Origin: Ginglymostoma cirratum
Lineage: Eukaryota
Length of the DNA stretch: 64,000 nt
Direction: 5' to 3'
NCBI GenBank assembly: GCA_024137785.1
Contig: JAHRHZ010000039.1
Location: 62,001-126,000 of the forward strand
Below are positions 1-43,200 of this stretch, piece after piece (within the stretch, counting starts at the first letter, position 1; each line of letters begins with the position of its first letter). The notes under the pieces are model-generated. The model saw only the letters and a program-made list of their open reading frames with translations. It did no database searches and was not told the origin of the DNA. The translations under genes were made by a program, and so were the position numbers.

Positions 1-1085
1 GAAGCTGAGGACTTTCATCAGAAGGAACATCACCGGCACAGTGTCATCGGCCACATCAAGCTGATTGGATTTGTTTTTTCTCTATTTTTCCTCTTGGTTA
101 TTAAAAGTTAAGGCTACAAACTGACAGAAGTTTTTGCAGCATCTGATTCAATTCAATCATCATTCAATCATTCATCATGACAAAATGTTATGATAGTATG
201 AGAGTTATGGAAAAAAATAGTCATCTTTCAGACAGGGTCATAGCATTGTGTGGTGCTTTGGCTGACTACTATGTCTGACTTCATTCTTGGAGCTGGAATG
301 AAAATGACAGTCAATCACACAGTTGATGATGGGAAGTGAACATATATTCATAAATGTGATAATGTAGTTACAATGAAGTTTCAGAGCAGGCTGGCAGGGC
401 CTGGTGATGTGGTATCCTGTAGCATTCTGCGGGGTGGTATCCTCTGACATTCTGTGGGAAAGGGGATAGCCCTCCTCTCCATCACCCCACCCTCCAGGAC
501 ATCCAGGACACTGTCAGCAAATTGAAGTGCCAAACTTGCCTCTACCAGCCATCTTCAGGGGCAATTGTCTACACACTGCAACTGTGAAGGGCTCCTCCTA
601 TCTTACAGCATATGAACTTGTGCAGAGCTGGGCTTTAAATATAGTAGCAGCAGTGGGAAATCCAGAAGGTCTCATCAGTGCCGAGTACTTCTGACTAGTA
701 AATGCAAGATAGGGCAAAAGCAGCACCTTGGAGATGTCGTGCATATTTTATGAGATGAACAACACAATATTGTAAGAGAAAACTCACTAGGGCTTATGGC
801 AAGAAACTCTCCATGAAAATTCCTGAAATTAACACACTAAATATTGGGAAAACTCAGCCTCTTTCTCAAATGTAAGTTTTATGGCCTTTCAGATATATGA
901 ATGTGGTTTTCAGGTTCTAAGCTCAACTCAGCACTCCGATAATAGCCATTAATTTTGTTTTCCAGTACCCCCTGCCAAGGTTTTATACCTTTTCATCGAA
1001 CTACACAGAGAATCTTACATTTATATAAATATCATTGCCCCTGGCTTTTATCTTGATACTGATTTTTTTCCTCTTATTGTTGCAG

Positions 1086-1168
1086 AGGTGTACTCATGGA
1101 TAATAATATATTGTGTATGATCCTCTGGATTTCTCACCACTTCACGATGAAATTGAATTTCACTGAAG
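1086..1168 (+). CDS. Candidate first coding exon (signal-peptide-like) of an unidentified gene
   Basis: Strong acceptor ttttttcctcttattgttgcag, ATG at 1096, open frame MDNNILCMILWISHHFTMKLNFTE(G), donor AAG|gttggt in phase 1. Confidence 0.4.
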
Positions 1169-2385
1169 GTTGGTTTGTGCCTGTGATATGCTGTAATTGC
1201 TTCTTTGTGTGCTAGGCAGGATCATACATATTTTTAAAAATGCTATGTCTGAAAATCTCCTTTTAACATGACCTTTGAAGAGCAACATGTTGCCTCACCA
1301 TAGCTCAGTATTTTCTGACAAACGGCCTGTGCTGAACTGCTAACCTGCTTTTTAATAAAAAACAGGTTGCTCTGTATTTCTGTTTAATTTCCAGTTTCTG
1401 GCATTTGCACTTGCTTTTAAGACCACTTTTACTGTGTAATTGTTCACAATACTATTGTCACTTATATTCATTATTTAAACTAACTACTTTGGCAAAACGT
1501 TGAAGACTGGGATTTTCTCCGAACTGAAATTGGCCACCTTATCAAATGCAAGCAAAGTACCTTTCCCCGTTCTTTTGAGTTCAAAATCTGATTGATCTGC
1601 CTGTTTAGACATGATAATGGTACACAATATCATACGGTAACTATTGGCTCCAAAAAGTGTACTACCTATTTAGACCTCAGGGGAAGTTCTATGGGCTGCT
1701 GCGAGCAATGAATTGTGGGGAGTTATTATTTAAAATTCTAAATTGATATAATCTACTGAAGATAGTTTATAGTAGCAACAATGCTGAAAAAAATCATAAT
1801 AATAGTTGTCAAATTAAGTCGAAAGAGTGAATATAGACATGACTGATGCTAACCCAATGTAATATGCCATTGAAACAGATAGAACATTCATAATACACAT
1901 CATGATACATTGATGTTGAAGCCAGTATTTAAACCTGCCAACTGGCATGATTTGAAAAATATCAGGCTCAGGTTTGGTTTCCCTTTGGCTAGATAGGCTG
2001 CCAACACTCATTGCCTACACTGATTGTGAATGAGTACACAGGAAATGATTTTAGGCTATAAGGTCTGGATAGCAGCTACCAGTCTAAGAGATACTTCTTC
2101 ATTGATATATCACTTTACTAATGGTAATCCATCGACCTGCAATTGTTGGTAGTGATCCTTACTAATGGCAAGTGCATAGCAAGCACATCTGGATCACACA
2201 GGTATATGTTCAGATGGTTCTGTATTATAACATCAGGATAAAAATAAGTATCAGAAATGAGTAAACCCTCCAGAAGGTGGGCACCAACATTTTGATCACT
2301 AATAGAGGCAGAAAATCCCCAGGAACGGTACAGAAATACAGTATTTCTATTTAGCATAATTTGGAATTTAAAAGAAGTAACAAAA

Positions 2386-2886
2386 TGCAGTACAAGGGTC
2401 CAGAGGAGGTTTACAAAAATGCTCCTGGGGATGAAGGGCTTGTCACATGAGGAGCAGCTGAGGACTCATCTGTGCTTGATGGGGTTTAGAGGAATGAGGT
2501 GGAATCTCATTGAAACTTACAAAATACTGAGGGGCCCTGGATTGAATAGATATGGAGAAGATGTTTCCCTTAGTAGGAGAGATTAGGTCCACAGGGCACA
2601 GCATCAGAATGAAGACATGGTCATTTAGAACTGAGATGAGGAGGAATTTCGTCAGCCAGAAGGTGGTGGATCTGTGGAACCCTTTGCCACAGAAGACTGT
2701 GGAGACCAAGTCGCTGAATATATTGAAGACAAAGATAGATAGAGTTTTGATCAAAAAGCAGACCAATGGTTATGGGGAGAAGGCAGGAGAATGGGTTGAG
2801 ACACATATCAGCCATGATTAAATGGCAGAGCAGGTGCAATGGACTGAATGGCATAATTCTGCTCCAATATCTCATGGTCTTGTGGT
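2386..2886 (+). mobile_element. CR1-clade LINE 3' fragment
   Basis: ORF 2552-2821 FRTEMRRNFVSQKVVDLWNPLPQ matches the CR1 ORF2 C-terminus; 3' UTR ends in atggtcttgtggt. Confidence 0.9.
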
Positions 2887-3179
2887 ATTGCTTATTAAAA
2901 TAATTGAAAACACTATTGGAAGAATAACATGCAACATTGCTATAATGGAGAATTTAAAAGTGTGGACACATTTTAAGTCAGCAGCATTGAAAACACATGG
3001 ATTTAATGCAAGATTATGAGCTTGAAGACAGCAGATTATAAACAGAATTGAAATGTTACAGTTTAATAAACTGTTCTGATGAAATGAGTAAATTCAACTA
3101 TCAAAAAAAAGGAGAAATAATACTTCGAAAAATATTTAATGTGAGAGATGGGCCAAACTAAACACAAATTTAGACATCT

Positions 3180-4620
3180 TGGAGAAGACAAACATTAAAA
3201 CGCAAAATGACTTCAGACCTAAGCAATAAGTCAGAGACTGGATAATGGTATATTTAATGGCTTCTATGGTGGCTAACATTACCAAATATCAAAGGAAATA
3301 CAGATACTTTTAATGAAGTTTTAATAATTATAATAATTTTTAATGGTTGTAGTTTTGATAATTGCTTACATCTGAGGACAATCTGAAATGAAATCAAATA
3401 ACTAGCAAAATTTAACAGAAGACTTCTGTTTCCAGCAATTTCAGTAATGTTCTCTACAGCTACATGGAAATCTATGACTATGGAGCCTTATAATCAAGAG
3501 GAAATAGAACTGTTGTCAGAATTATTGATGACTCTTTATCAGATTACTTAGAGCCAATGGAAGATTCAGGTTTAGAAAATGCATTCATCAAGTTGAAATC
3601 AGAAAGATGCACAGGCAGGTCCTAAGAAGATAAGAACAATTCTACCTGAGGATAGCAACAGAAACTATTAACTGTATAAAGTCTCTAAATAGACATGTGA
3701 CAATCCAATACAGAATATAAGTCAAACAGAAGGTGCTAAGCCTCATTGTCAACACAACAAAGCCTCACAGGCACAGACAATTTCCAACCTTAATAAAAGA
3801 ATACTCTATCCATAAAACTGTTGGTCAACTCCAAAAATGCATAGAAGTAGAACAATTTCAGACAGCAAGTGGCCAAAATTTTATTCTTATAAAGTAATAA
3901 ATGCAATGTTTCCACCTCTGTTAGTAAAGACTCCCAGATTAGATGTTCTTCCTTCATTAGAAAAGATACTAGGACTTTCTGAAGAAATTACTGGTTTAAA
4001 CAAAAGTAGTTATTCAACACATTCAACTTAGCCAGACGTATTTATGTCAAAAGACAAACTGGTTAATTTTAAGTTTGGTACAGAAACAAGTGTCCTTCCC
4101 ATTTCAGATCAAAAAACATGGCTGAAGTTACAGCTAACTACATGGTCCAAGTTGAGCAACTTCCAAAATCAAATGCTGCAAGGAATACTGCAACATGAAC
4201 AGCACGCAAGGGTTGAAGATCACAATCAACAGTCCTCACTTTTGAGACTTTATGCATGCTCTGGCCTCAACTAGCATGCAGTTGCAGGAGGAACACAACT
4301 AAGCTCAAGAAAATAACTTCCTTAGAAACAAAATGTTATTAACCAACTGGTCAAAGAGCAGGCAGTAGAAATAATCATTGGGCTTCTCAGATACATGTAA
4401 GGCTGTAAGTCCTTTCCTGTAGACAGCATAGAAGGAAGACAACATTCACATATTCATGGAATGGTGAAAAATAAGAAACTGCCTGCCCTGAACATCCAGA
4501 TTATTGCAAAAAGGAAAATTTCTGGTCAAATCAAATAGCAATTGCTTCATCAAGAAATCCAGGCTATTACAAAGAAGAAGGTATTTGCTTCAACAAAGCA
4601 GCCATATTCCATAATGAACA
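3180..4620 (+). mobile_element. Highly decayed Gypsy-like LTR retrotransposon internal remnant
   Basis: A-rich pseudo-coding stretch; ORF 4044-4274 LVNFKFGTETSVLPIS resembles the retropepsin motif V.FKLDTGAS. Confidence 0.4.
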
Positions 4621-5629
4621 TTCATGAGATTATAAGATCCTTCAGATGACTTTATGGGAGAATTAACTGAATTAGGAGTGAAGAGTTTCTCTGCAAAAGA
4701 CATTCAGCAGATTAATAGTCCACCAACTACTAGGTTCCGTGACAAAAATTGGGACGGGGGCGGAGATTATATCAGTTAATGTTTCGGAAAGAGTTAACAT
4801 TGGGTGAAGCTAATGCAACTTTAATCTGATGAGGTCATACAGTCTTTGTGTGGAGTTAATTTTGCATGAGGTCCTGAGAAATACACATGTCATATCTGTG
4901 TCTGATATTTGTCATTGTGCCTAATTAATTAATGCTAATTGTACCTATTGCCAATAAACTTCCAATTTAATATAAGACAAGTATTTTCTTCTTGTTAAGA
5001 CTCAAAAGTGATCTATCCTCCACCCTTGATAATAGCTGGGGCCTTAGTCTCAGCAAGGAAAAGAGGATTGGTGGCAGCCATAAGTCATTAGTGGTTGGTA
5101 ACTAGATGGCAAAAAACATTGGCAACAAGTTAACTAGAAATATCACAATACTAGTGTTGCATGGTTTCTCTCAAAACAATGATAAATGCTAGTTATGTCC
5201 AAAAGCTACAACAACGTTAGATGTTAATCACAAAATTTAGAAGTTCTTGCCCTTGATGTGCTGCTCTCTTCTTTTAGCTTTGTGAAACCAGACTTAGTGC
5301 TCAGCAATGAAGCAATGACCCTCAACACTGACCTCAAAGTAAGTCTTGCACAGATATGAGGCAATCCACTTATGGAATATCACCTTTGTTGTAACTGATC
5401 TCTGCATCCTATACTATACATTTCCAAAATAGCATTAAGCAATGTTATCCGTCCATCCAAGTTGCGAAAGAATTCTTACAGGCCCAAGCAGAAGACAAAA
5501 AGCAGCAAGATGAAATCTTTTTTCTTTACTTAGAGCAAATTAAAAATTGGAAAATATGACAGTGAAGGCAGGAAGTACAATGTTCTTTAAGAAAAAGATA
5601 AATTATTTCAGCTTAATATAGCTATATAG

Positions 5630-5780
5630 AAACTAGGGATTAGGCCACTCAGCCCTTTGATCCTGCTCTGATATTCATTAAGATCATGGATAATCCTCTA
5701 TCCTAATGCTGTATTCCTGCATTTTCCTCGTACTCCTTGATGCTTTTAAAAGCTAAAAGATTTATCTCTCTTCCTTGAGC
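5630..5780 (-). mobile_element. CR1 3' tail fragment
   Basis: taggccactcagccctttgatcctgctctgatattcattaagatcatgg is the reverse complement of the CR1 3' UTR seen at 2800-2886 and 52000-52087. Confidence 0.7.
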
Positions 5781-6757
5781 AATGCCATCCTTGGTATCAG
5801 CCCAGTGAGCCTTTCAAACATCTCTAATAATTAATCATTTTGCAGAACTTCATGATTCATAATTATGTTCTCAGCCCCAGTTGTGTTAAAAATTCTACTA
5901 ATCACAGCCACATTAAAACATTTGGACTCAATTGAACAACATACAACTTTATAAAGTTTCAAACAGTGATGTGATGTGGGAATAGGAATACAGAAATGCG
6001 AGGGGGTGATGCTGGTGATGGTGAGTAACTACTGTGGGAGGACACAGCACAGGTTGTATCAGAGTCCTAAGTCACAGACCACACCTTCAGGATTTTCTCC
6101 CATTGTTCCGTATGCACTTGGTATCCTGAAGTTGTTCTCAGTTTCTGAAGGGCAATGACTATTAAAATACTTATTAGTTCTTAGTGACCTACCCTTGGGA
6201 TCAGAATCAGAACCGTCATTATTTCTATTTTAAATTATTAACTTGGATTCAGTATCAGATAATAAATTTATCAAGTGCATTGTGAAAAAAATCAAAGAGG
6301 AGCATTTGATTCAGGTGAGATAGCTTGAAAACTACAAACTAAATAAAACAAAATATATAATGTGGCTGAACAATGGCAGATGAAATGTAATGCAAAAAGA
6401 ATAAAGTGCTGGACATGGAAAGAAAAGGTCTGAAACTGCCTTAAGCAACAATATTTTTGAAATTGTGGCCAGCCCAAGAATTTGGTTTTCTGACTTAATA
6501 TTGGCCTTAACTCTCTGAACTGCTATGGATTGGATGCCTGATTGATTACCAAAGACCCAACTGATGGCTGGTCCTCAAGATGAAACAAAGCTCTTTGCTG
6601 TGATAGTAGGTGACCCACTCACTGCCCAAAAGCTAAAAACCACACAGGGACTTTAGTCAATTCCTAAAGCAACCTGAACTAGCATTTGCAATGAGCATTT
6701 CTGAGTCCAAAATTATCTTCCAAACCAATTTAGAATTGTTTCCAGTTAGGTCATTCT

Positions 6758-7310
6758 AGACCATAAGGCCATAATGAATAGGAACAAGAGCATACCACTT
6801 GGCTCTTCAAGTCTGCTGTGCAATCAATAGGATCGTGGTTGATCCGATATTGCTCATGTCCACTTTCCTGCCTTTTCCCCGTGACCCTTGATTCCCTGAT
6901 TTATCGAGAATATATCTATCTGAGCCTTAAATGTACACAAGCACTCTGCCCCCACAGCATTCTGTGGCAAGGAGTTCCAAAGACTCACAACCCTCTGACG
7001 GAAGAAATTCCTCCTCATCTCAGTCTTAAATTGACACCCCTTTATTCTGAGACTATACCTTCTGATCCTAGACTGTCCCACAAGAGGAAACATCCTTTCA
7101 ACATTTACCCTGTCAAGCCCCTTAAGAATCCTACATGTTTTAATGATATCATCTATCATTCTTCTAAACTCCAACCTGTTTAAACTTTGCTCATAAGACA
7201 ATCACTGCATACCAGAGATTCTCCTAATAAATGTTCTTTAACTACCTCGTACAAAATTATATCTTTCCTTAAATAAAGGAACCGAACTGCTCACAGTACT
7301 CCAAATACTG
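6758..7310 (-). mobile_element. CR1-clade LINE 3' fragment
   Basis: ORF 6854-7201 FKTEMRRNFFRQRVVSLWNSLPQ; tail agaccataaggccata. Confidence 0.9.
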
Positions 7311-7909
7311 TTTAACATCTGTTAGATTGTTTTTTGTTTCTAAAAAAAAATCTTTCTTCCCATGCTTCAAATTGAATAAATTAATACTGTCCATGTTTCT
7401 TCATTTTTCTCAAGTTAATTTTTTTGGCCTATGTTCAAGACTAATCCCTTTCTTGTCAAGCAGGATAAGCTGAGGTCACCGCACACAATGTTTAAGCTGC
7501 TGCAGAAAATTATAAGCCATCCAGAGAGGCTGTGCACATTTATCTGTCTGAAAAAATCCTCTCTGTTATCTTGCATTACTTTTCGATCAACGGACAGGGC
7601 AGAACTGCTGAAACCAGCACTCTCATCACATTTCATAAAACTTAAGCAAGGCTGGTACTGCATACCATCTATGTACTGATAAACATGTTATGGTTTCCAA
7701 TTCATCGACTGATTAAAATGAATGTTGAAAAGGTTTTATACTTGAAGAGATATATTATAGCACCATGTTAAATTTGTAGTTGTATACGATTTGATGATAG
7801 CTCATTTCTTTTTAAAAAATCATAAATCATATTTTGGCTAGTGGGAAGAGGAAGCCTGTCTCTGAGAGTTAATGGGTCAGAATTTGCTGTCAAAATAACA
7901 CTAACAAAA

Positions 7910-8310
7910 TTACATAGGAGAAGTGGGCCATTTGGCCCTTTTGAGCCTGCACTACCACTTGAAAAGATCATGGACAGTTGGTCTGCATTTCAAATTTATG
8001 CAGTCCTATCCACCGCTATAACCTCGAATCCCCCGCCCAATAAGAATATAACCAACTCCATCTTAAAAATATTCAATATGATCGTCTGCCCTGACTTCTG
8101 AGGGCTTCAAAGGCAGACAGGCTTCAGAAAGAAAAAATAACTCTTCATCTGTGACTTCAGATGCAGCAGGAGAGTTTACCAAAGGAATGAAAGATTATCA
8201 GGGATGAGCAGGAATGTAGGGTTGAGGTTAAAGTCAGATCAGGTATGATCTTATTAAATAGTGGATCAGGCTTGAGGTGCCAAGTGTCTGACTTGTCTTC
8301 CTTGTTCATG
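7910..8310. mobile_element. Two opposed CR1 3' tail fragments
   Basis: About 7910-8160 minus-strand tail (ataggagaagtgggccatttggccc) and about 8190-8310 plus-strand tail (gggttgaggttaaagtcagatcagg). Confidence 0.6.
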
Positions 8311-8504
8311 TGTAAGTGTGCTCTGCTGCTTGAACCTTGCTGTTTTCACACCATCGGCATCATTTTTAGATTTCTGCTGTGCACCAGTTCAAATGCTGCA
8401 AGACTGGTATTGCATTTCCCAGCTCCAGTGAGGGAAGAATTACCCAAAATCTGGTCAACAGAGGCAAGTTGCTACTTTGCTGACCAGCAGTGCTGGACAA
8501 GTCA

Positions 8505-8755
8505 AAAAGTCAAACAGCACAGAAACAGACCCTTCAATCCAACTTGTCGATGCTGACCAGACACCCCAATCTGAACTTGTCCCATTTGCCAGCATTTGGC
8601 CCCTATCCCTCTAAACCCTTCCTATCTATATATATCCATCCAGATGCCTTTTAGATGTTGTAATTGTACCAGCCTCCACCAAATCCTCTTGCAGCTCATT
8701 TCATACATGCACCAACCTCTGCATGAAAATGTTATCCCTCAGGTCCTTTTTAAAA
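8505..8755 (-). mobile_element. CR1 (or partner SINE) 3' tail
   Basis: acagcacagaaacagacccttc...ccctctaaacccttcc is the reverse complement of the tail at 57060-57196. Confidence 0.8.
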
Positions 8756-8756
8756 C

Positions 8757-9064
8757 TTAATAAAAACCAAAAGAACTGCAGATGCTGTAAATCAGGAACA
8801 AAAACAAAGCTGCTGGAAAAGCTCAGCAGGTCTGGCAGCATCTGTGAAGGAGAAAACAGAGTTAATGTTTCAGGTCCGTTCTGAGGAAGGGTCACCGGAT
8901 CCGAAACGTCAACTCTGTTTTCTCCTTCACAGATGCTGCCAGACCTGCTGAGCTTTTNNNNNNNNNNNNNTCCTTCACAGATGCTGCCAGACCTGCTGGG
9001 CTTTTCCAGCAACTTTGTTTTTGTACCTGATTTATAGCATCCGCAGTTCTTTCGGTTTTTATTT
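8757..9064. mobile_element. Fold-back (palindromic) Penelope-related non-autonomous element with hammerhead core; contains assembly gap
   Basis: aataaaaaccaaaagaactgcagatgctg at the left and gcatccgcagttctttcggtttttatt at the right are inverted arms; N-run at 8958-8970. Confidence 0.8.
8878..8913 (+). ncRNA. Minimal type I hammerhead ribozyme motif
   Basis: gtt-CTGAGGA-a-gggtc(accg)gatcc-GAAAC-GTC-aac: intact core, stem II, palindromic ACGT stem III, 3-bp helix I. Confidence 0.6.
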
Positions 9065-9432
9065 AAAAATGTTTGCTAATTCTAGTATGTTCCATGCTCA
9101 TCTATCCCTGCACACACATTTCATACATAATCATTAAAGCTTTCAGGTTATGTGTGTGAATGTGATATGTGTGTGAATTGTTGTTAATTCTTGGGATGAT
9201 ATCCCTTCTCTGGTTTCAGGGAATGTCTTTCTGTTTGTGTCCTGGAGGCAAATGCAACTGGTTTCCTTCCTGCCTGAGTGATGCTCCATATTCCACACTG
9301 CAGGTGTCTCACTGTAAGGTGACTGCAATGTCAACATTGCAACATGTCTCAAGATAGACATCGTCGTCACTAATTGGTTGAAACGAGTGAAAGTTACATC
9401 TTGTTCTGTGCCCCAATAACTCTCAAAAAACA

Positions 9433-10198
9433 AAGATTAAAGAACAAAGAAAATTACAGCACAGGAACAGGCCATTAGGCCCTCCAAGCCTGCTTCGATT
9501 CAGATCCCCTATCTAAACCTGTCGCCTATTTTCCAAGGATCTATATCCCTCTGCTCCCTACTCATTCATGTATCTGTCTAGACACATCTTAAATGACGCT
9601 ATCGTGCCCAGCTCTACCACCTCCGCTGGCAATGCGTTCCAGGCACCCACCACCCTCTGCGTAAAGAACTCTCCACGCATATCTCCCTTAAACTTTTCCC
9701 CTCTCACCTTGAAATCGTGACCCCTAGTAATTGAGTCCCCCACTCTAGGAAAAAGCTTCTTGCTATCCACCCTGTCGATACCTCTCATGATTTTGTAGAC
9801 CTCAATCAGGTCCCCCCTCAACCTCCGTCTTTCTACTGTAAATAATCCTAATCTACTCAACCTCTCTTCATAGCTAGCGCTGTCCATACCAGGCAACATA
9901 CTGGCGAACCTCCTCTGCACCTTCTCCAAAGCATCCACATCCTTTTGGTAATGTGGCAACTAGAACTGTACGCAGTATTCCAAATGTGGTCGAACCAAAG
10001 TCCTATACAACTGTAACATGACCTGCCAACTCTTGTACTCAATACCTTGAATGATGAATAAAAGCATGCCGTATGCCTTCTTGACCACTCTATCGAGCTG
10101 CATTGCCACCTTCAGGGTACAATGGACATGAACACCCAGATCTCTCTGTGTATCAATTTTCCCCAGGGCTTTTCCATTTACCGTACAGTTTGCTCTTG
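9433..10198 (-). mobile_element. CR1-clade LINE 3' portion (RT C-terminus)
   Basis: ORFs 9960-10280 (LYRTLVRPHLEYCVQF) and 9558-9959 (LEKVQRRF...FFTQRVVGAWNALP); aaagaac tandem tail. Confidence 0.95.
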
Positions 10199-11354
10199 AT
10201 GGAGAGATGTCATGGGCAGTGAATCTCTTCAAAACTTTATTCAGATCCATTGGATCTAATGCATATACTAAGCTTTCCATGTTTACTCACTGCTAACATA
10301 TTGCTATTTCAATATGTAAGAGTTGACACTTCCTTCATTACTCTTTTCTTTTCAAATTAGATTTGAGGGTAGCTCCGATTCTCCTTGGCAGATGTTGAGT
10401 TGGTCTTACCCTCTCACCTACTCTGATATTCACTAGGTGGACACCCAAGTCGAAAGAATCTAGAATCTGTTCAGCAGTCAATGGTCTTGTATTCTGTGAA
10501 CTTTTATAGTGTACATACGGTTACCAGTCCAAGTTTCGGACTAGTTAAATGGATTTTTCTTAGAGTTTAGTCCTGGAATTACAGATCTTCATTCTTCCCA
10601 TCTTATTGGTCTTTTATCTTTACTTGCCCTCTTGAGGCAATTATCATTTGATCATGTACTCTCAACATTACATTTAATGGCTCCATTTTGGTTATTATCT
10701 TGTGCCACTTCACAGAGGCCAATGAAACTCATCTTGTTCCATCTAACACCCATGTCTATCTGACCTTATCTGACATGTTTTCTGGTGTACAGTGACTCAT
10801 CAGAAACATTTTACAATATCTCTGCAGGAGCTTTGCTTTGCTTCTTTCTATTAATACACTTACACATCAAGTGATTCAGCTCTTGTAGTTAGAACGCTAC
10901 TTTCCTCATGCTGGGTATGTTTTCTTTCCTTTCATGTGGTGATCTCCATAATGCTTGTACTTTGGCACTGATCATTCAGTTGAACATTCTGGAAATATTA
11001 CTTTTTGCATCAAGCATTTATTTTTTTTTTCATTGTGTTGTTCGTGATAAGCCTGGACAATCTTTCAGCATAATGCAATGCCTTGTCTGTTCTCCCCTGT
11101 GGACTCTGTAGCTGACGATTGACAAATTCTATTTCTAGTACATATTCAATAGCTTCTTTGAGACTCAGTTTATCCTCTCTCAGCAATGTGCAGCCATGGC
11201 AGGATTATTTATTCTTAAATTAATTCTATCTCTGATAGAGTGATCTTTCAGTTGCGCAAATTGATTAATTCAATTTGATATCTCAGCATTGTCACATTGA
11301 TCACTATTCATCCTCTCTTCGTGATCTTTGACATTAAAAACATACTATTCATAA

Positions 11355-11442
11355 TAGAAATAAAAACAAAAATTGCTGGATAAATTGCTATTTCTGTTTT
11401 TGTTTCTGATTTCCAGCATCCACAATCCTTTCGGTTTTTTTG
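11355..11442. repeat. Internally deleted fold-back element (same family as 8757-9064)
   Basis: aaaaacaaaaattgctgga...tttttgtttctgatttccagcatccacaatcctttcggttttt. Confidence 0.65.
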
Positions 11443-12424
11443 CTCATAATAGTATCATGGAGTGTTCAAAATAGGTCTTTAAATCTTCGGTGTTTCTCTA
11501 GTCTGGATTTTCTCTCCTCAGTGAGGTCTAGGGCGCAAGAAAGCCTATGGCAGTCTTTTTGATAACATATTTGCCATTCTTATTTGTTTGGGTTTTCTGT
11601 TTAACATTGTTGCAATCTCATAATTTTGCTATTGGGAGTAGAATTTTCAATTCTGTCCCACATTAGATTTCATCTCCACAGGAATAGGGATCAGAAAATT
11701 CACAACCACACTGAGACCCCTAGTCATGCAGAGTTGCAGTGATTAAAACAAAACTGTAGTGCTTCTTATATTAACTGGCTTTCTTACAGCTCTCAACATC
11801 TGACTTTCTTGTGCTCACTTCTGACACCGTGGCTAATGTGTAGGCATTAATGTGTTCCAGCTTCTCTCTCGATACTGAAAGCAGCTACATCCAAAGTCAT
11901 TTGGCAAAGAAAAGGTACAACGTACAGTTCACAAATGAATTTCCCCAAAAAAGTACACATTGAAGGAATGGAAACCCAATTGCCAATGAATTTTTAGATC
12001 ATTTCCTCTCTGAGCAATCTTTTTGGCATTTCACTTATGAGTCTCAAAACCATTTTGGCTGTGTTTGCTGACACCTGAGAGATGCATGGTAGCAGTGAAA
12101 TCTTGAAGTGAAGTGTGTAATAAACCTAAAAGCACCAGAAAATGTTTAAAAATAATAATAAAGATAAAATAAAAAATAAAAAGAACATAATAAAATTCAA
12201 GTTACATTTTTTTAAAATCAGCTTTACATTGCACATGCACATATGCTTGCATAGTCTGAAAAAAGAGGTCAGTCTGTGCAGTCAGAATTTACCATTGTAC
12301 CATTAGTGTCAGCAGCCACTTCTTTCATCCTTGTCCGTCCTTCACACTAGCAATAATGTCATCATAAGACAGGATAGAACTAAATACCGTCTTCATTCTT
12401 AACGTGCTCAGTACCATTATCTTA

Positions 12425-12590
12425 CACAGTATCTTCTTCCCCGCTGTTATCAGACTTTTGAACAGACCTCTCAAATGTTAATTTTGATCTTTCGCTCTGT
12501 AACTTCTCTAACGCTATATTCTACACTCTGTATAGCACACAAAACAACACTTTTCACAGGATATGTGACAACAATAAATTAAATTCAAAC
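12425..12590 (+). mobile_element. Rex1/Babar-like LINE 3' tail
   Basis: ttcttccccgctgttatcagacttttgaac = FFPAVIRLLN, a typical Rex1 ORF end, followed by gtgacaacaataaattaaattc. Confidence 0.6.
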
Positions 12591-12689
12591 TCAATATCTC
12601 CTCCAAGCCTGTTTCCCATAATTGATATGTGTATTCATGCATATAATTAAATTTATCACTATCTCATACCCCCACGTCTTTGACTTCAC

Positions 12690-13940
12690 AAATTCAGGCA
12701 ATCTAGAGGCTTCATAATTCTTCTAGAAGGAATTCTCATTGCACGTGGAAGATTGGTAGTTCCCTGGCTTAAGGACTGCTGACCTGATTTAATTCAGGAC
12801 CTGAGAAGGACTGTATAGCTTTCCTCCTCTGAAGGAACTTTTATCTCTTAGGTGTCTTTAGTGAAGCATGTCATTCCTGCTGAACCAGGAATTGTGCCAC
12901 TTCTTCATTTGGAGGACTTTCAATCTTTTGAACTTTCCTGTCAGAGGAATACTTTCCCACTGGAATAAGTAATTGCCATTTAACATTATGTGGAGCGATC
13001 TTTAACCTCAAGAACTTCTTTCATGGAAGACAGCTACTCTGATGAAACAGGTATATTCTTTTCTACTGTATCCTTGATTTCTGAGCCAAGCAATTTCTTT
13101 TTGACAACATCCTGGACCTTGGTGCCAAGCATCTTCTTTTGACCATGTCCTGAAGTTGTGGACATTGGCCATCCTACCTCAAGTGTGACTGCTGTAGAAT
13201 CATACACATTCCATTTTCAACAAATGTTTATTCTAGATCTGTGAGAAATCTCAATGCTAAAGTATGCAGACTCTGTACTTCAGATCGGAGATTAGATTGG
13301 ATGCTTGTATTTGTCCCCTGTGCTTCCTTTACTGATGAACCCAACATGTTCTCTTCCTCATTCATGCTACTTGAGGATTGCTGCTTACTTATCATGACCT
13401 CTGTCACTGGTATTAATGGTGCTTCCTTGGAAAATGAAGAATTGAAACATTCCTCTTGAACTTGGGTCACCTCATCATCTGACATCAAATGAGAATCTGC
13501 CATTACAGTTCATTTGCCAGGCTGTGCTGCTGTCTGAACAATTTCAATTAAAGATCAATCAATGAGATCAAATGGGTCAGTCTGCTCATTATCTTTCTCA
13601 TCATTTGCATCTTCTTGCAAACTTTGCTGACTTTTGCCGTCTGAACTCTCTTCAGTGCTGATAGGAGTGGAAAATGTTTCTGCCAGTCCTGTGTAATCAC
13701 ACATTTCCATCCTGTTGAATTATTCTCTCATGCCAACATGGGTCATATCAATCAATTCTGTCTTCGTTTTGGTTTCTGTCATGAGACTAGGAATCCCTTT
13801 AAAATTGTCTATTGGTTTTCCCTTGACTGAATGTTTAGCGGTTGGTGTTCAATAACTAATATTTATTTCACTTGTGATTCAAGGACTGGCATTTCCTTGA
13901 TCAGTTGTTTCAACACTGGCGTCTGCTGATGTCTTTTAAC
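12690..13940 (-). pseudogene. Decayed Ki-67 (MKI67)-like coding fragment
   Basis: One minus frame from about 13940 to 13228 with few stops: TPTAKHSVKGKPIDNFKGIPSLMTETKTKTELIDMTHVGMRE*FNRMEMCDYTGLAETFSTP, resembling Ki-67 repeats (DLSGxAEMFKTP-type), then a S/E/K-rich low-complexity region. Confidence 0.55.
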
Positions 13941-13944
13941 AAAA

Positions 13945-14666
13945 CAGTCTAAGAGAGATAGCTTTGGAGGTGAATGTGAATTTATTTACACTGGGAGTGT
14001 TTATGAGTGAACAAAGTAAACAGTAAGTGTAATGTGCTTTCACATAACAGATTCTAGAATTCTTTTTGGGCATAGGGAAACACCCACAGCTTGGTGAAAA
14101 GATATTTTATTTTTAATTTCAGGTTGCGCGTTTCTGCAGAAGTTTTTGCTGAAGCTAGATGTGTAAAGCAGTTGCTCCTGAGAAAGGGAGAGGATACTTT
14201 GGAATTTTTTAAAGTAAAAATACCTCCATGTAAGGAGTCCACTTTAAAAATTCCAGACCAATAGTGTTTGGTTAAAACCCTGGAGGGAGCATGAAAATGT
14301 ATAAGCTCAGTTATAGAATGAATCAAGGAAGAGGCTATAAGATTGTCACACTGGGGATGGAAACCATAACTAAGTCAAACACTGTGTGGGATAGAGAAGG
14401 GCATCCTCTCAGATGTTTGAGTAATGTAATGGGATGTTGTTGGGATTAATGATATTGTATTTATATCATGTTTCAAAGTCTTTAAACATATATTATATGA
14501 AACTTCTGTTTCATTGTTAAACCTAAATCTGCAACATTGCTTCCACATATTTCAGTGAGAGACCACCTTCTTAAAACCAGAAAGAAAAGCAAGATATGAT
14601 ATTTAAAGTCAGATTTCAAATTGGGATCTGACTTGTTCAGTAACAACATAATCTGGGATTATAACA
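13945..14666 (+). mobile_element. Solo-LTR-like sequence (5' end uncertain)
   Basis: Ends in ...gggatctgacttgttcag...ctgggattataaca (TAACA terminus); non-coding. Confidence 0.45.
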
Positions 14667-15699
14667 ATAGATTAACATTGAAATGGAGATTAAAATGCTC
14701 CTTTGGCTAGATTCACTGTGTTAAAGCTTTGTGAAATTTCTACACAGACTCAATAGCTCAACTGGTATATAACTGGGTTCAAAGGACAGTCTTCTTTGAT
14801 GTAGATACAATGATGGCGAATGAGATGACTTAATCAGACAAGAGTCCAAAGTCAGATTCTTGCCTTCAATAAAAGCTCTGCCAATCAAGTGCTCCTGCCT
14901 GAGATGGCAAGTTCACAATCCTGCTGTCAGTGGTGAGAAGCTCACTTCCTTGCATCTGCATCTTATTTATATTTCAATTCGCTCTTCCAATCTACCTCTC
15001 TACAATCAAGAAACTCGACAGAGAAAAACTCAACTGGTAAAACAGAGCAAGTCTCTGAAGACTTGAATTGTCAATGCCCATTGCAGCTCACGGAATGACT
15101 GTGCCAGCCACCTAGCTTCTCTTTACATGGAGCTGCTTCTTCTACACAAGATACACACTATGCTCAATGACAACACTATTCCTGGACCCATTGACCATGC
15201 AAATCAACATTGTCAAAGCTCTAACCTCACAACACAACCACATTTGGTCTTGGCCCAATTCAGCTGGGACTTTAGGATTTCAAGCATGTAATTTCGAACT
15301 GAGGGCTCCTGGCAGCTTGTTTCCGGCTATGGGAGAACCAAACATCACATGCATCTACACAAGATTTCTAGTGCTGACATGGACCCACACAACATCGGTG
15401 TTTTTGCTTGTTTTTAAGTCACACAGAACTTTAGCACTGAGTTAGAAACATGCAGCTTTACCTGCTTTAAAGTGAAGGAGAAGAAACACTCAACTTCTGT
15501 CAGTGGAAGCACTGAGGAATAAATATATCAGTCAGAGAAAGGATGACTGCACAGTGCCATATCAACATCAAAAATGTCCAGTCTATTCAGTCAGGTTTGC
15601 AGCTTCAGACAGTCAAGATGCTGGTCCGATTCTACGTGAGGTGATTGATTCTGCATAATTCCGAGGATCCATGTCCTTGGACCATGGTCAGTCCATAAA

Positions 15700-16180
15700 A
15701 CCAATCAGACATAGGAGCAGAAGTAGGCCATTCTGCCTATTGAGCCTCGTCCACCATTCAATGAGATCATGGCTGATTTGATTACCCTCAAAACCACACT
15801 CCTTCCTTTTCTCATATCACACTTGAATCTTTTACTGATTAAATATCTGTCAATTTCAGCCTTGAATACTCTTAATGATTGAGCTTTAGCAGCCCTCTGT
15901 GGTAAAAAAAATCTACAGATTCACAACGCTCCGTCAGAAGAAATTTCTCCTCATCTCTGCCTTAAATATCCTAACCCTTATTTGAAGATTATGCCCTGTG
16001 GTCCTAGAATCTCCAACGAAGGGAAACAACTTTTCTGCATCAACCCTGTTAAGTTCTCTAAAAATCTTCCAAGGTTCAATAAGCTCACCTCTCATTCTTC
16101 TACAGCTCAACAAGTACAGGCTCAATCTATCAACCTTTCTTCATAGGATAATCCGTCCATACTTGGTATCAACTTAGTAA
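15700..16180 (-). mobile_element. CR1-clade LINE 3' fragment
   Basis: ORF 15934-16125 RMRGELIE...FKAEMRRNFF; tail ataggagcagaagtaggccatt. Confidence 0.9.
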
Positions 16181-16184
16181 ATAA

Positions 16185-16302
16185 AGTGGATGCTAGAAAT
16201 CTGAAACAAGCACAGAGAATGCTGGAAAAGTTCAGCAGGTCTGGCATCATCTGTGGAGAGAGAGACAGAGTTAATGGTTCAAATCTGGTTTGACTCTTCT
16301 GA
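16185..16302. repeat. Half fold-back Penelope-related element
   Basis: gatgctagaaatctgaaacaag...gctggaaaagttcagcaggtctggcatcatctgtggagagagagacagagttaa, homologous to 8775-8865. Confidence 0.75.
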
Positions 16303-17375: not shown

Positions 17376-17475
17376 TCATTTCTGAAGAAGGGTCTAGGCC
17401 CAAAACGTCAACCTTTCCTGCTCCTCTGATGCTGCTTGGCCTGCTGTGTTCATCCAGCTCTACACCTTGTTATCT
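17376..17475 (+). mobile_element. Solo Penelope terminal repeat with 15-bp target-site duplication
   Basis: Matches 44905-45003; flanked by cagatcaagtctagg at 17361-17375 and 17476-17490. Confidence 0.85.
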
Positions 17476-19000: not shown

Positions 19001-20447
19001 AAATAGGGATGGCTGCCGTAAGACAAGGGATACACCCCTCCCCACCCCCAACCCCCGGCCCCGAACCTGACTCACAACGCCTGTAGGAAATGCACAGGTC
19101 ATTGCAGTTGAAGGTACAACACTTCCAACAGGTTTAAAGTAGAATATACAATATGTCTCCTGAAGATACTTTTCAATGCTTGGACTGCTCCAGCAGGACT
19201 TTACCGTATATTCCAGGCAGAGTCACTAGTACCAAACACCATTTGTACAAATGAAGTGGGGATGTCCTGGATGTAGAAAAAATAGAGGAAGTTGAACATG
19301 AAAATGACTTGTGTAAAGGCTGAAGGCCTCTGAACAACTTTGGAATTATGTCATAGAACTGTTTCTCCCTGGACATAAATAGCACAATATGGGTGGAGTT
19401 AAGAAAGAAGAGAGAAACACATGGACAGCAAGATAGAAGCCTGAAGTCTAGCTATGTGAATGACAGAAGTACTTACAGAGACAGTTATGGAGTAGTCTTC
19501 CAAAAATGTAACAGTAAGGTTAAAGCCTGGGATATCTCTGATTATTTCGTGTTTAGTCCTAGTATATAGTAAACAGTGACACAATGAATTGTAAGTGTAA
19601 AGACAGTTCTTGCCTTACCTTCTCCTTGGTCATTTTATCTTGAACACAAACTCTTGGACATGGGCATAAAGCCACTGGCAAAGAGGGCGAGGATCAGGAT
19701 CTTAAGCAAGAGAACTGGTTAAGCAGGAGAACAGAGGAATGTTTTGGACAGGCGAAGAGGCCAGATACAATCTTATTGACAGCTGCGTCTAGGAAAATAA
19801 TGCAGTGTTTTCAAATTTGTTTGATTGTTTACATTTTTTGGTTTCTGAACCGCCATCCTGCTAAGTTTAAAGAGCATGTCTAATTTGTTAGTTTGCTGTT
19901 ATTTACTTTGCTTTATTTCAGATTGAATGTTACATTGCCCATATTACTGTAGAAATAATAACTTCAGTTGAACCAAAATTAAAGTATCTACGTAGACTCT
20001 TCCCTGCATCACCATTAGGGGAAGAAAACAGCTCTGAAACGGTGCACTAAAATCATATGGCAATAAAGACATGTCGCTCTGAACTCATCTGTGAGAATAT
20101 GGCATGAGTCATCTGCAATCCTTGCTCTCATGGGAACCTCAAAGTTGATACGGGTCCTGACAAATCTCCATTTGTCCCTTCCTTCATCTCTATCCTTTCA
20201 ATGATTCAGTGCTCAGGGACTGTAACATCACCTGAATATACTTAAACATTTTTATGCGTGCAAAACCTGCAGGAGATAGCACTTTGTGCATGTTTTCTCT
20301 CCAGACTACTGCATTGTGAGGAACAGACAATATTTGAACTGCCCATCAATATCTCTCACTCTTGAATGTCACTGTGCTTCCTTGAAAATAATTGATGCAT
20401 AGGAACAAGCTTGCCCTACTGAGATGTGTGGAATCATCGCACTTCTG

Positions 20448-20578
20448 TTCTGTAGAAGAGTCACTGGACCCAAAAATGTTAACTCTGCTTTTCTCCAAAG
20501 ATGCTGCCAGACCTGTTGTGTTTTTCTGTTTTTGTTGAGGATCTTCAGCATCGACAACCCTTTGTTTTATTTTATTAG
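20448..20578. repeat. Half fold-back Penelope-related element
   Basis: ttctgtagaagagtcactggacccaaaaatgttaactctg...gatgctgccagacctg, homologous to 8880-9064. Confidence 0.75.
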
Positions 20579-23077: not shown

Positions 23078-23220
23078 TCTGAAGGAGGGCCTCTGGACTT
23101 GAAACATTAACTCTGTTTTCTCTCCACAGATGTTGCCAGACCTGTTGAGTTTCCTTGAGCAAATTCTGTTTTTGTTTGTTTCAGATCTCCAGCATCTGCA
23201 GTTAGTTAGTTTCATTTTAC
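23078..23220. repeat. Half fold-back Penelope-related element inserted in a tRNA-like unit
   Basis: tctgaaggagggcctctggacttgaaacattaactctgttttctctccacagatgttgccagacctg. Confidence 0.75.
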
Positions 23221-38930: not shown

Positions 38931-39281
38931 TAAAATGTTTGCTTTGTCTTTTGGAATATTGGGAATGACTCTCAATTCTTAAAGAGTTAGTTGCTTTATG
39001 TGGTCAGTTATCTCACCTCAAAGCCACTCAAGAAATAATTCATTCACTGGGATTCCAGGGGTAAATTTTTGACATACAAGCTACCATTCTGACCTGAATT
39101 AAAAACAAAATTTTAATCAGAATATTTTATCATGGAGCTAAGCCAGCTGTCAAAATGTGATAGAATATTGTCATGATAACATTTATTGTTAGTCTCTCAT
39201 TGTCCTCAAAAAGGCTCCTACTTGAAAATGGTAGAATACTGATTGTCAGTAACTGTTGTGACTATGCTGTAATATTTCTAG

Positions 39282-39382
39282 GTTTTCAATATGAGAGGTT
39301 AAACGTGGCTCCATCATCGCCAAATGACAGGAAACGAGCAATTGGAGGTCAAGTGCATATTCGTTATAAAATATGCTCTACT
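39282..39382 (+). CDS. Candidate internal exon (phase 1 start)
   Basis: atatttctag|; open frame GFQYERLNVAPSSPNDRKRAIGGQVHIRYKICST; retains several CpGs against a depleted background; donor gtaaag only moderate. Confidence 0.35.
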
Positions 39383-39507
39383 GTAAAGTTCACATCAGGC
39401 ATTCATTGAGTACTTACCAAGTGTAGGCATGAATCACAGTGCTCTACATTCTAAATCAGTCTATTACCTACAGTCATTTTGCTGGTACGTCTTGCTACTG
39501 TGGATGA

Positions 39508-39602
39508 TTACAACAGTGACTAACCTTCAAATAGGACTTCACTGCTATAAAGCACTTTGCGATGCCCAGTGGATGTGAAAAGCATTATATAAATGCAGGA
39601 CC
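39508..39602 (+). mobile_element. Ancient L2/SINE-type 3' tail
   Basis: tacaacagtgactaaccttcaaa...aaagcactttgcgatg...gtgaaaagcattatataaatgca. Confidence 0.55.
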
Positions 39603-40111
39603 ATTTTGTGTCTTTTAAAATAAGGGCAGAGAGAGATCTGAACATGAACTACACCCACAGACACTGGAAGTCACAAAATAATTTCAAGATAAATCTGAGT
39701 CAAGCTGCTTTTCAAGTTTCAAAACAGTGATTTCACAGCTTTTTTTTTGACAGACAGTGGTTAAGTAGATCATGTCAACACCTACCATTCTGAAACATTT
39801 TCAGAAGCTGACATGCAGCAAAGCACCAAAGCATTATTCCCTTAATGATTTGAGGAGGACAGAAGCAATCTGGTTTTATGTGAACACAGCCGACAGTCAC
39901 ATCTTAAGGTTGCATTGGTGTGTGTGATGTTGTTGGATACTCACATGGATCACTAGAAGACAAGAGTATTTTTGAGAAACTGGGCAAAACCATCCAAATA
40001 CTCGAGAGATTATTTCTGGGGACTGTGTTTAAGATCGCTACTAAAGCCTGTCAACATCAGTGCACAGTGCAATCACCACGCTTCATACCTCCTAATGTAA
40101 TTAAGGTCTTT

Positions 40112-40270
40112 TAAAAAAAAGTTCTGTCATGGGACATGGGCATTTCTGGAAAGACCAGCAATTGCTATCCAACCATGATTATTCGTGAACTGAATAGCTT
40201 ACTAAACCAGCCCAGAGGGCAGTTAAGTCAACTACATTGTCGTGGGTCGGGAGTCACTTGTAGATTAGTT
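40112..40270 (-). mobile_element. Fragment of the tRNA-headed SINE family
   Basis: cagagggcagttaagtcaactacattgtcgtgggtcgggagtcac is the reverse complement of the middle block. Confidence 0.65.
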
Positions 40271-43200
40271 CTTGGATTTTAGCAACTTATGAGATCAAAG
40301 TGTCTTATCACTTGAACCGGGTGGCAATCTAACCACTCCTTCTATAACTCCACCCAAATTGACAACAACTGAAATGCCAGCAAAGTCAGGGTGGCTAAAT
40401 GATCTGATGATAATTTTCGGTTCCTGCCAGGATGTTTACATTAAGCAGAGTTAAAATTAACTCAGAGATAGCAAGAACTGCAGATGCTACAGTCAGAGAC
40501 AACACAGGTTTCTGTTCCTTTCAAGTTTCTGTAATATTTTAAATCCTAAATCTTGACATTATTTCATGATTAGCCTCCCATCCCCAGCTGTAAGAAATAT
40601 TCAAAACCAAACTGTTTTTGATATCTGGGTTTGTCCATCACAATCAACTATTGAGTCAATGTGATTCACACATTTCCCAAGTCCAGTCAGGTTTATGCAA
40701 AATTGGAAAATCCCCATTCTTTCCTGTTCACCTAGAAGTTTCAATCAATGTCTATGAACCATTCAAATTATCTCTTACAGATTATGATACTGTTTTTGTT
40801 TTGCCATTTTTGTGCCATTTTTCATGTCATGTGTGTACATTGTCAGCGTCCAGTGCCATCATAAGTCAGTATCCTACTGCACTGCCTATATCATAGACAC
40901 TCTCTCCGTTTTGTTCTTGCTACGGGCAAGGGGTGTTGCCTCCCTCTTGAACTTGCTTTTCAGCTTTGGCTCGTGGTTTGCTTTGCCGAAGTTTGTCTCA
41001 CCGTGGCCCTGCTTCCAGATCTTGCAGCTTCCTGACCTTATCTCCACTTGGCACAGTCCCCCAACTTGCTCTGCCCTGGTCATGGTATTTTTTGGCCTCG
41101 GACTTCATCTTGCTCAGAGCTTGTTCTCTCTCTGGGCCTCATTCTTAAAACCCCCTGACCTCCTACTCCCAGCGTTGCTGTTCCCTGGCCTCACCTTCCA
41201 CCTTCCTTTATAACATGAGGCTCTAGATCTGGTTTTCCTTTCTCTGCTGGCTCTGCTCCTGAGTCCTCGCTTTCCATCTGAATTTGAACTGAGGTCCTAG
41301 GCTCCATCTAGTGGCAAATATTTTTCAGTGCATTTAGTCTGAGGATCCCAGATTGAGCAAGGTCAATCTTGCATGAGTATGGAAAATGACTTTTTCTTTG
41401 CATTTTTTTATTTTAAGTTATTTCATTTACCAACACAGCATCACAGCTATTTAATTTATTTATATTTCAATTTACAGGGTACAAATATAATGTTTTAATA
41501 CTTTTCTCTGCTGAATAACACTCTGTAGAACATAACTTGAATTTTAACATTGATTCCTATGAGAATCAATGCTTCACTTAAAGTTTTTTTGCATAAAGTT
41601 GCATGTTTCAAGAATGTAACCCAACTTTAGGTGAGGATTCCAGTACTCCAAAGTATAAATTATTCTTCTTGCAATTATTTTCCTTTATAATCTTCACCGC
41701 AGAAGGTGAAAAGGGACAGAATTTTAGTCCCTGTCTGCAAGTCTCTTTGTCTGTTGTCTGTAGATAATATATTTCAAAGCTAGTTGTTATATTTCAATGA
41801 AACCTGATACATTGATAGGGAAAATCCATTGAAGATCTGATTCATTTCTGCAACTATGCTGATTTGATCCTGGATTCTAAAGGATTGTTAACATTGGGAG
41901 ATCTGCAATGGCTTTTTGTTAGAATGTAGTGGGGTGTTTTATTTAGAATATTGCTGATCAATTTAAAATATTGTGGATTGTCTTAGCTGCTGAGATAGAA
42001 TTATTGTCATCCTATCTAAGTTACGAATTCGTTTAAGCAAACGAATTTCAAAACTGAGCACTATTCCTGGATGGGATAAGTACATACCCGTTATGATAGT
42101 TAACTAGATTTTATCAGGTCAGTATTTTTTGTGATTTATTCCAAGAGACAAAATTCCAGGGTTTCCCACTGCTGTGGTTTTCTCGTACATTAATTTCATG
42201 AAAGCCAAACGTGAACGAATCATAAGCTTTATGTTTTATTATATAAACTAAGCACAAATGTAACACACAAACACAAGGGAAACTTGATAAAACAACATCA
42301 AAGATTTTGAACTTTTAATTGCTTCAAAAACAGTTCTGAAGGAAGAAAAATGTAATCCCAAATTTAAAAATGTTGTAAAGCTAAACTTGCGTTGTTGTCA
42401 CATTCAATCACGGTGTCCCTGACACATCATAACTGCTATAAACCTGTAAAATAAACTAACGAGCCAGACCCTTGAAGACATGATGAACATAACATTAGAA
42501 CTAATTTAACTCTCATGAAACCGATTGGGCCACAATTTAATTGTTTGTACGGAAAAGGTTCGGGGATAAAAAAAATGAAATTGTCAGTTTTTTTAAAGTT
42601 AGTTTACAAAATATTCTTTGTACTAGAGATCAGGTTGATATAAAATATTATTTGTGTTGTCTACAAAGATAACCTGTATTGACGAAATAACTGATACGTT
42701 GACTGATGCCTTAAGCCGCATTGACTTTCTGTTGAGATGAATGTAATAGCTGTGGTGGTGGCCCTGCAAACACAGGGCCAATCCTGCCATGACCACTCTA
42801 GGACCTCTGATGGGATTCTGTCATTCAAGTGGCTACCTGCCTCCATATCTTTAAAGGTGAATAGCCTCCCCTAAGACACTCATCATCCCACAGCAGACCT
42901 GGATCAATGTTCATGGAGAATGTCTAGAAACACAGGTGACTGGTTAGGTTCAATGGGGCTGATCAGGCAGCCCCAATGTGGTGGGAGTGAGAGTCACTGC
43001 GGGTGGCAGGGGTGGCAGTTCCTGATGTAGTGGAGTTCCCTCCTGGCATTACAGAGTGTCTGAATACAGAATGCCACCAGCTTTTACTAGGTATGGTGTA
43101 CCAAACCTTGCCACTGGCAGAATGCCTGCGGCGGCCTGAAGAAGCCCTTACATACATTGCCATGTATTAATGGCCTCACTTGGCCTCTAGATGGAAAGTA

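Follow-up and report, generated by a model that had tools for sequence, protein, structure and literature searches.

Head-to-head pairs of 5′-truncated pseudo-LTRs (pLTRs) of an endonuclease-bearing (EN+) Penelope-like element (PLE), likely made afresh at each insertion, best explain the fold-back at positions 8757 to 9064 of the window (the whole stretch of 64,000 nucleotides of Ginglymostoma cirratum DNA that was analysed), and in the window copy the assembly has likely joined two of them; we put the probability of this reading at roughly 0.8. The class of insertion is already known, and the window copy is likely inert as well as misassembled. The value lies in the population, whose thousands of stubs record the likely start of the element RNA and the start and end of its copying, and which bears on the Penelope insertion mechanism and on the role of the hammerhead ribozyme.

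The parent element

The proposal of the sequence-only reading that the arms are an inverted Penelope terminal repeat was upheld, the arm forming the 3′ end of copies with reverse transcriptase (RT) and GIY-YIG open reading frames (ORFs). Copies selected by their ORF have the arm as 3′ end and RT motifs upstream, and both the RT motifs and the GLLYIGE..H..H region were read in L106, L093 and L065. The locus L065 consists of an inverted arm and 3′ UTR, RT thumb, CX4CxxC linker, GIY-YIG domain, 3′ UTR and sense arm, with a target site duplication (TSD) of 13 bp. Its linker, CNRRRCNTC, fits the pattern CX2-5CxxC that marks the Neptune and Nematis clades when found between RT and EN, according to PMC8557442, and makes the element a candidate member of one or the other of these clades. 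Its sequence identifies the arm as the 3′ pLTR of an abundant EN+ PLE with a Neptune/Nematis linker.

The claimed abundance of the family was borne out in the 4.36 Gb of genome searched: 8,647 exact matches were found to a 42-nt pattern in the arm downstream of the hammerhead and 828 to a 42-nt pattern of the hammerhead itself, and none to the controls, including the reversed arm pattern. The RT-thumb peptide of L065 drew 92,114 first-look candidates, of which 150 were scored, a figure that is not a copy number. Three short ORF pieces of the family of the window copy (family A) gave zero matches in Pfam.

The pLTR was found both as the 3′ end and ahead of the ORF, but in separate copies; the arm of L138 continues past the tail into the start of the L093 ORF (86% over 154 nt). 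A single full-length pLTR-ORF-pLTR copy was not recovered among the loci searched, and L106, a candidate for one, was rejected as composed of separate insertions. The spacers between arms form a continuum from 0 to 1.6 kb. In L093 (1611-1632) and L138, a pyrimidine run ending in AG lies about 30 nt past the tail, immediately ahead of where the ORF region has its first ATG; it resembles a 3′ splice site, and a leader intron is possible there.

Arm 5′ ends and the candidate transcript start

Positions in the arms are counted from C3 of the hammerhead as 0. The 5′ ends were tallied for 113 arms with usable flanks, at 88 loci chosen by the pattern downstream of the ribozyme. They pile up just before the hammerhead, with 54 at -6 to -1, 21 at 0 to 19, nine at -40 to -7 and none at -100 to -41; the others lie before -100 (13), at the cut site at +28 to +32 (three) or further in (13). 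The pile-up is spread over about -7 to -1 instead of falling on one base, and ends called by BLAST can creep by a few bases. In 67 long copies, TATAAA is found at -33, and TCAGTT is placed so that its A falls at -4. The sister families B and C have other upstream sequence, with TATTTA at -35 and CCATTT, again with A at -4. Among 39 copies of these two families, the upstream sequence is retained in 19; of the 20 short copies, 17 begin no more than 8 nt from the core and the other three at 13-14 nt. In family D, the TATA-like ATAAAT and TCAGCT stand in the same register. TATA boxes and initiators (Inr) follow spacing rules, and it is likely that the element RNA starts at about -4, at the Inr-like A of a TATA/Inr-like site. 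Promoters that are internal or lie in the pLTR are known in Penelope, as PMC2377424 and PMC3846280 report.

The pile-up suggests that cDNAs were primed on both nicked strands and copied until they ran off at the start of the transcript. Under such a mechanism, the Inr-like A, ~29 nt past the TATA box and at a distance of four bases from the core, would begin the RNA, whose first bases would form stem I; the element protein would nick both target strands and prime reverse transcription internally at two sites, and both cDNAs would run off or stop near the 5′ end of the RNA and be joined by microhomology. A tail of 30-40 bp bounded in vitro by two internal RT start sites, with both strands cut and extended and a dimer predicted, is described in PMC11167929. 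The Anolis carolinensis Poseidon element PAc, as presented in that paper, likewise has a pLTR hammerhead upstream of two ends that delimit the tail and are separated by ~35-40 nt; it differs from the element studied here, which has the CX4CxxC linker of Neptune/Nematis and an ORF that seemingly begins past the tail, not at stem II. We give an even chance to the proposition that a TATA/Inr-driven transcript opens with the hammerhead in its first ~34 nt and that every pLTR copy with its TATA box preserved yields an RNA with a leader that undergoes two rounds of reverse transcription, begun at two internal sites, onto the two nicked strands of the target. If this is true, stubs of the "strong-stop" kind and fold-backs would be made by the tens of thousands, and the ribozyme would be a self-decapping switch, not a device for release from tandems.

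An untemplated cap-G left no clear sign in 47 solo arms: the base in front was G in four and A in three of those starting with AG, and T in seven, G in four and C in two of those starting with G, in a sample biased by the ~12 solos that came from a pattern with initial CAG. The missing clear cap-G counts against the sharp version of the start-site model. No paper devoted to the start-site or twin-priming ideas was found in the partial library searched.

The pile-up could instead mark a splice acceptor, the CAG before stem I, or some other RNA processing site. Family A does have CTGAC, which resembles a branch point, together with a pyrimidine run and, at -5 to -3, CAG, and the intron of Drosophila virilis Penelope ends at helix I (PMC4209133). 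Families B and C have no AG at that place and show the same pile-up, which makes the acceptor the weaker rival to a transcript start; the solo arms, moreover, share no upstream exon. We regard a processing site as unlikely.

Pairing, target site duplications and junctions

Unpaired arms have their 3′ ends near +96 (41 of 73) or near +132 (31 of 73), the long site being at about +132/136. After four of the 68 head-to-head pairs were dropped for N, the 64 gap-free pairs combined a short with a long end in 50 cases, a long with another end in 11, two long ends in two and two short ends in one; in a subset of 24 selected independently of the junction, the corresponding counts were 18, five, one and zero. 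The TSDs are roughly 10-15 bp and variable. A flank score of at least 8 was reached by 51 of the 64 pairs versus a shuffled mean of 0.6%, and by 23 of 63 solos versus 1.3% shuffled, the far end of some solos lying beyond the locus. The population has the features of EN+ PLE insertions, namely an inverted 5′-truncated copy, a one-sided tail and a TSD; the window copy, which straddles an apparent assembly join, does not.

An inverted 5′-truncated copy with a one-sided tail of 30-40 bp and a TSD is described in PMC8557442 and PMC3846280, where the insertions of the Pen2a_Av type in Adineta share with those studied here the head-to-head arrangement and the trouble that they cause in assembly. Their TSDs are about 8-10 bp, compared with about 10-15 bp here, and they differ from the present population, in which the arms are mostly ORF-less and of 100-136 nt with 5′ ends piled just before the hammerhead. 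From their structure, the fold-backs look like the shortest form of this known inverted-pLTR insertion, by-products of insertion.

The junctions of 823 short fold-backs are diverse; one junction accounts for about seven of 100 listed, counted by eye, and the type found in the window for one of 100 listed. The window junction was found at 12 other loci by a search biased towards it, on both alleles of the subfamily marker at +46 and in both short/long polarities (six versus four). The rough classifier used for polarity calls L006 short+short, whereas the end-class analysis calls it short+long. Both arms of an insertion share the +46 allele in 63 of 66 pairs, so a single source RNA was likely the template for both, unless they were homogenised later; arm-to-arm conversion or self-priming of the fold-back could have produced the sharing.

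Self-priming as the origin of the fold-backs, with a cDNA or antisense template folding at the junction and being copied onto itself, is proposed for rotifer Penelope in PMC3846280. It would fit the lower divergence of arms within an insertion than between insertions (0.062 versus 0.090) and the small palindromic or duplicated bits at some junctions. By itself, self-priming leaves unexplained why a short end is nearly always combined with a tailed end, in either polarity, and why the two arms of some pairs (L065, L036, L062) extend far into the ORF but to unequal extents, and it is improbable as the explanation.

Two loci, L061 (C8:10760400-10762900) and L064 (C12:37575700-37578900), have far longer inverted repeats that take in flanks foreign to the element; they reflect either captures by fold-backs on a large scale or artefacts of the assembly.

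The hammerhead and its predicted activity

A hammerhead core had been placed at the centre of the fold-back, and the motif is indeed there, at 8878-8913 on the forward strand. As read from the letters, GTT (8878-8880) precedes the core CTGAGGA (8881-8887); an extra A stands at 8888, ahead of stem II (8889-8902) and GAAA-CG-UC, so that GAAAC-GTC ends at 8910, after which the cut is predicted; the AAC that follows (8911-8913) pairs with 8878-8880 in a stem I of 3 bp. One of the five pairs of stem II (8889-8893/8898-8902) is G-U, in place of the G-C of the family. The GUC triplet reported earlier is present at 8910, as a minority variant; 66 of 67 long copies have GUU.

The motif was judged by the descriptor of PMC4209133 and by stem covariation. 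The arms have CUGANGA, GAAA and UH, the extra base after A9 and the palindromic ACGU, and are rightly described as carrying a minimal type I hammerhead. The published motif is alike in its short helix I, the extra base between 9 and 10.1, the pair G10.1-C11.1, the palindromic 15.2-16.2 and the lack of helix III, and pairs of motifs on opposite strands are noted there too; unlike it, helix II here is 4-5 bp. A search of all 64,000 nucleotides of the window against Rfam (E ≤ 1) returned zero matches, for the hammerhead as for all else.

Covariation of stem II had been suggested as a check; across six sister (sub)families it was found for stem II and for stem I as well. In 12 natural copies of these groups, 95% of cells are paired, two-sided changes occur in six of seven pairs and the covariation score is reached by none of 500 shuffles, while controls slid along the alignment are 12-52% paired. 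The alignment used 12 of 17 rows, two per group, with L260, the window copy, L242, L285 and L266 excluded; relatedness of the copies inflates the scores, and the search patterns fixed the core (making its invariance across families partly circular), not stem I. Variation at N7, in loop II and at position 17 fits a hammerhead. A more distant family (L269, L271), in which the extra base is U instead of A, stem I is UGCA/UGCA and the downstream sequence is unrelated, possibly represents another PLE clade.

Intact cores genome-wide number 9,743 with 10 nt and 87,273 with 8 nt inserted between the closing pairs, and 656 more were found with other stem II bases (control 23). The ~97,000 cores in these two insert lengths are roughly tenfold the about 9,000 reported in Xenopus tropicalis with a different descriptor. 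In 32 copies selected by ORF, non-CpG substitutions number six of 317 in the core (1.9%) and 57 of 1685 and 71 of 2019 in the flanks (3.4-3.5%), all small counts; decay per copy appears similar in core and flanks, as expected of dead copies with counts of this size.

Folding separates the arms from the fold-back. For 44 nt from the predicted start, the penalty for the hammerhead fold is 0.0, and for longer single arms it is 4-6 kcal/mol, an unpaired arm to +96 being predicted to favour another fold by 5.8 kcal/mol. In the fold-back, the probability of the stems is at most 0.001 (stem II 0.001) and forcing the hammerhead costs 20.8 kcal/mol; the long hairpin is predicted to sequester the ribozyme and render it inactive. 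When two monomers were cofolded naively, the active dimer was not obtained. The minimal motif as published shows no cleavage as a monomer and low cleavage as a dimer (PMC4209133), and the Anolis motif, according to PMC11167929, is cleaved only with protein, is dispensable for insertion in vitro and has no ends in RNA-seq. The hammerhead would be expected to act only in the parent transcript, as a dimer or with the help of protein, while that of the fold-back would be locked in the long hairpin of a copy without its own TATA box. As a lead only, PMC13725137 gives type I hammerheads in RNA viruses roles in translation.

The sequence-only reading had gone further and seen in the fold-back a self-cleaving, re-mobilised RNA. 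Such a non-autonomous unit, akin to a retrozyme or SINE, would be a hairpin RNA that cleaves itself and is re-inserted by the Penelope machinery. Some junctions do recur, as the window junction and the one counted about seven times among those listed illustrate, and bioRxiv 10.64898/2026.07.22.740005 derives animal retrozymes from pLTRs; the animal non-LTR retrozymes described in it are, like the fold-backs, non-coding and pLTR-related with a type I hammerhead. Those retrozymes form head-to-tail tandem units, whereas the arms at the mapped loci are solo or head to head, each insertion with its own TSD, and neither tandem units nor propagation as a unit with shared junction and ends was found. 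The heterogeneity of the junctions, the rarity of the window type in the unbiased list, its occurrence with either +46 allele and in either polarity, the lack of an upstream TATA-like box and the blocked hammerhead fold all speak against such a unit. The fold-back is probably not a mobile self-cleaving RNA, and propagation of this kind is very improbable as an account of the population.

That the fold-back is a DNA-transposon MITE with a chance match to the hammerhead, as its long terminal inverted arms, its lack of an ORF and the empty Rfam result might suggest, has a negligible chance, being contradicted by unequal ends in place of symmetric terminal inverted repeats, TSDs that are variable and not short and fixed, solo arms and compensatory stem changes, and refuted by the linkage to RT/GIY-YIG ORFs.

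The window copy as a likely assembly join

The long inverted arms noted earlier are 94% complementary, and 8817-8957 folds with an energy of -111.2 kcal/mol (z -17.4). The left arm (8758-8878, minus strand) is an inverted, antisense pLTR with a tail, running from +15 to about +136; it lacks the core, the truncation falling inside stem II, and is a 95% match to the 3′ end of L093 (+15 to +132). The sense arm (8878-8957, plus strand; 95% match) runs from -3 to +76 and into a gap. G 8878 is common to both arms and constitutes a microhomology.

The "308-bp element" does not hold as one intact unit, being split by a gap of 13 N (8958-8970) with a 35-nt overlap across it. The tailed right arm beyond the gap (8971-9064, plus strand), from +42 to about +136, is identical to the first bases of scaffold C39 and is likely that of another insertion. 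C39:1-4000 corresponds to window 8971-12971 (99.85%), C39:30001-33000 to window 38971-41970, and C39:52001-62000 to the stretch 70,970 bp further on; window 1-8957 is found again up to C39:141,927, after which N extends to at least C39:181,899, a gap of at least 40 kb. About 26 of 71 kb were compared. On this evidence, a contig of ~70,957 bp with both ends inside fold-backs seemingly occurs in two copies, with the 13 N as the link between them. Since the gap splits the element and the right arm is the start of this twice-present contig, the window fold-back likely joins two different insertions through the assembly. Both of its ends are of the tailed type, a long+long combination found elsewhere in two of the 64 gap-free pairs. 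A TSD around the window copy was not seen by eye. The left flank (8500-8756) is a common repeat fragment with 57 BLAST rows, presumably the end of a CR1-type LINE, which is not continued on the right side of the element, where the flank has only a self hit. A search of the genome for the true right half of the window insertion did not find it.

Alternatively, recombination between two elements may have produced a genuine tandem duplication, in which case the window copy would again be a chimera. Over C39:1-141927, the ~71-kb contig seemingly stands in tandem twice at about 99.9% identity, and everything in the window (1-64000) may have been duplicated by the assembly. Among the 88 sampled loci, six of 11 gaps adjoin an arm; fold-back hairpins break assemblies in practice. 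The unique right flank, window 9065-15963, has ~96% identical contigs in the run X21, from a relative.

Other Penelope-related sequences in the window

Of the decayed relatives that had been listed at 11355, 16185, 20448, 23078 and 28190, the first four are decayed arm pieces, while at the last BLAST gave no match whatever; the core pattern is matched by none of the five. They comprise a distal arm stub without the hammerhead at 11355-11439 (plus strand) and three single arms with a broken core, at 16186-16300 (minus strand), at 20444-20556 (plus strand, from -3) and at 23078-23203 (plus strand, from -1). A solo arm of a third sister family, with G12 of the core changed to A, lies at 17381-17470 (plus strand).

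A 5′-truncated sister-family PLE occupies 46399-48326 (minus strand), with RT motifs, a CX4CxxC linker (CNRRKCYTC), a GIY-YIG domain (PF01541, E 2.6e-5), a 3′ UTR and 58% amino acid identity to L065. Near 46519 on the minus strand it has an intact core attached to the Penelope ORF, which the sequence-only reading had missed. Its open stretch with GIY-YIG is 318 aa long, and another ORF copy of a sister family lies at 43595-44376 (plus strand).

Pfam searches with 28 of the 143 window ORFs of at least 70 aa found GIY-YIG and weak RVT_1 only, and no host gene, from which short exons would escape. No splice-like joints were found in presumed-RNA runs (four on 1-8750, two of them on 9065-16000, where two unlabelled runs were compared as well), which cover mainly repeats. 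The suggestion that copies in introns could affect host pre-mRNA gained no support for the window copy from these results. The weak RVT_1 match (E 1.8e-4) lies at 55889-56320 (plus strand) and is likely a LINE fragment.
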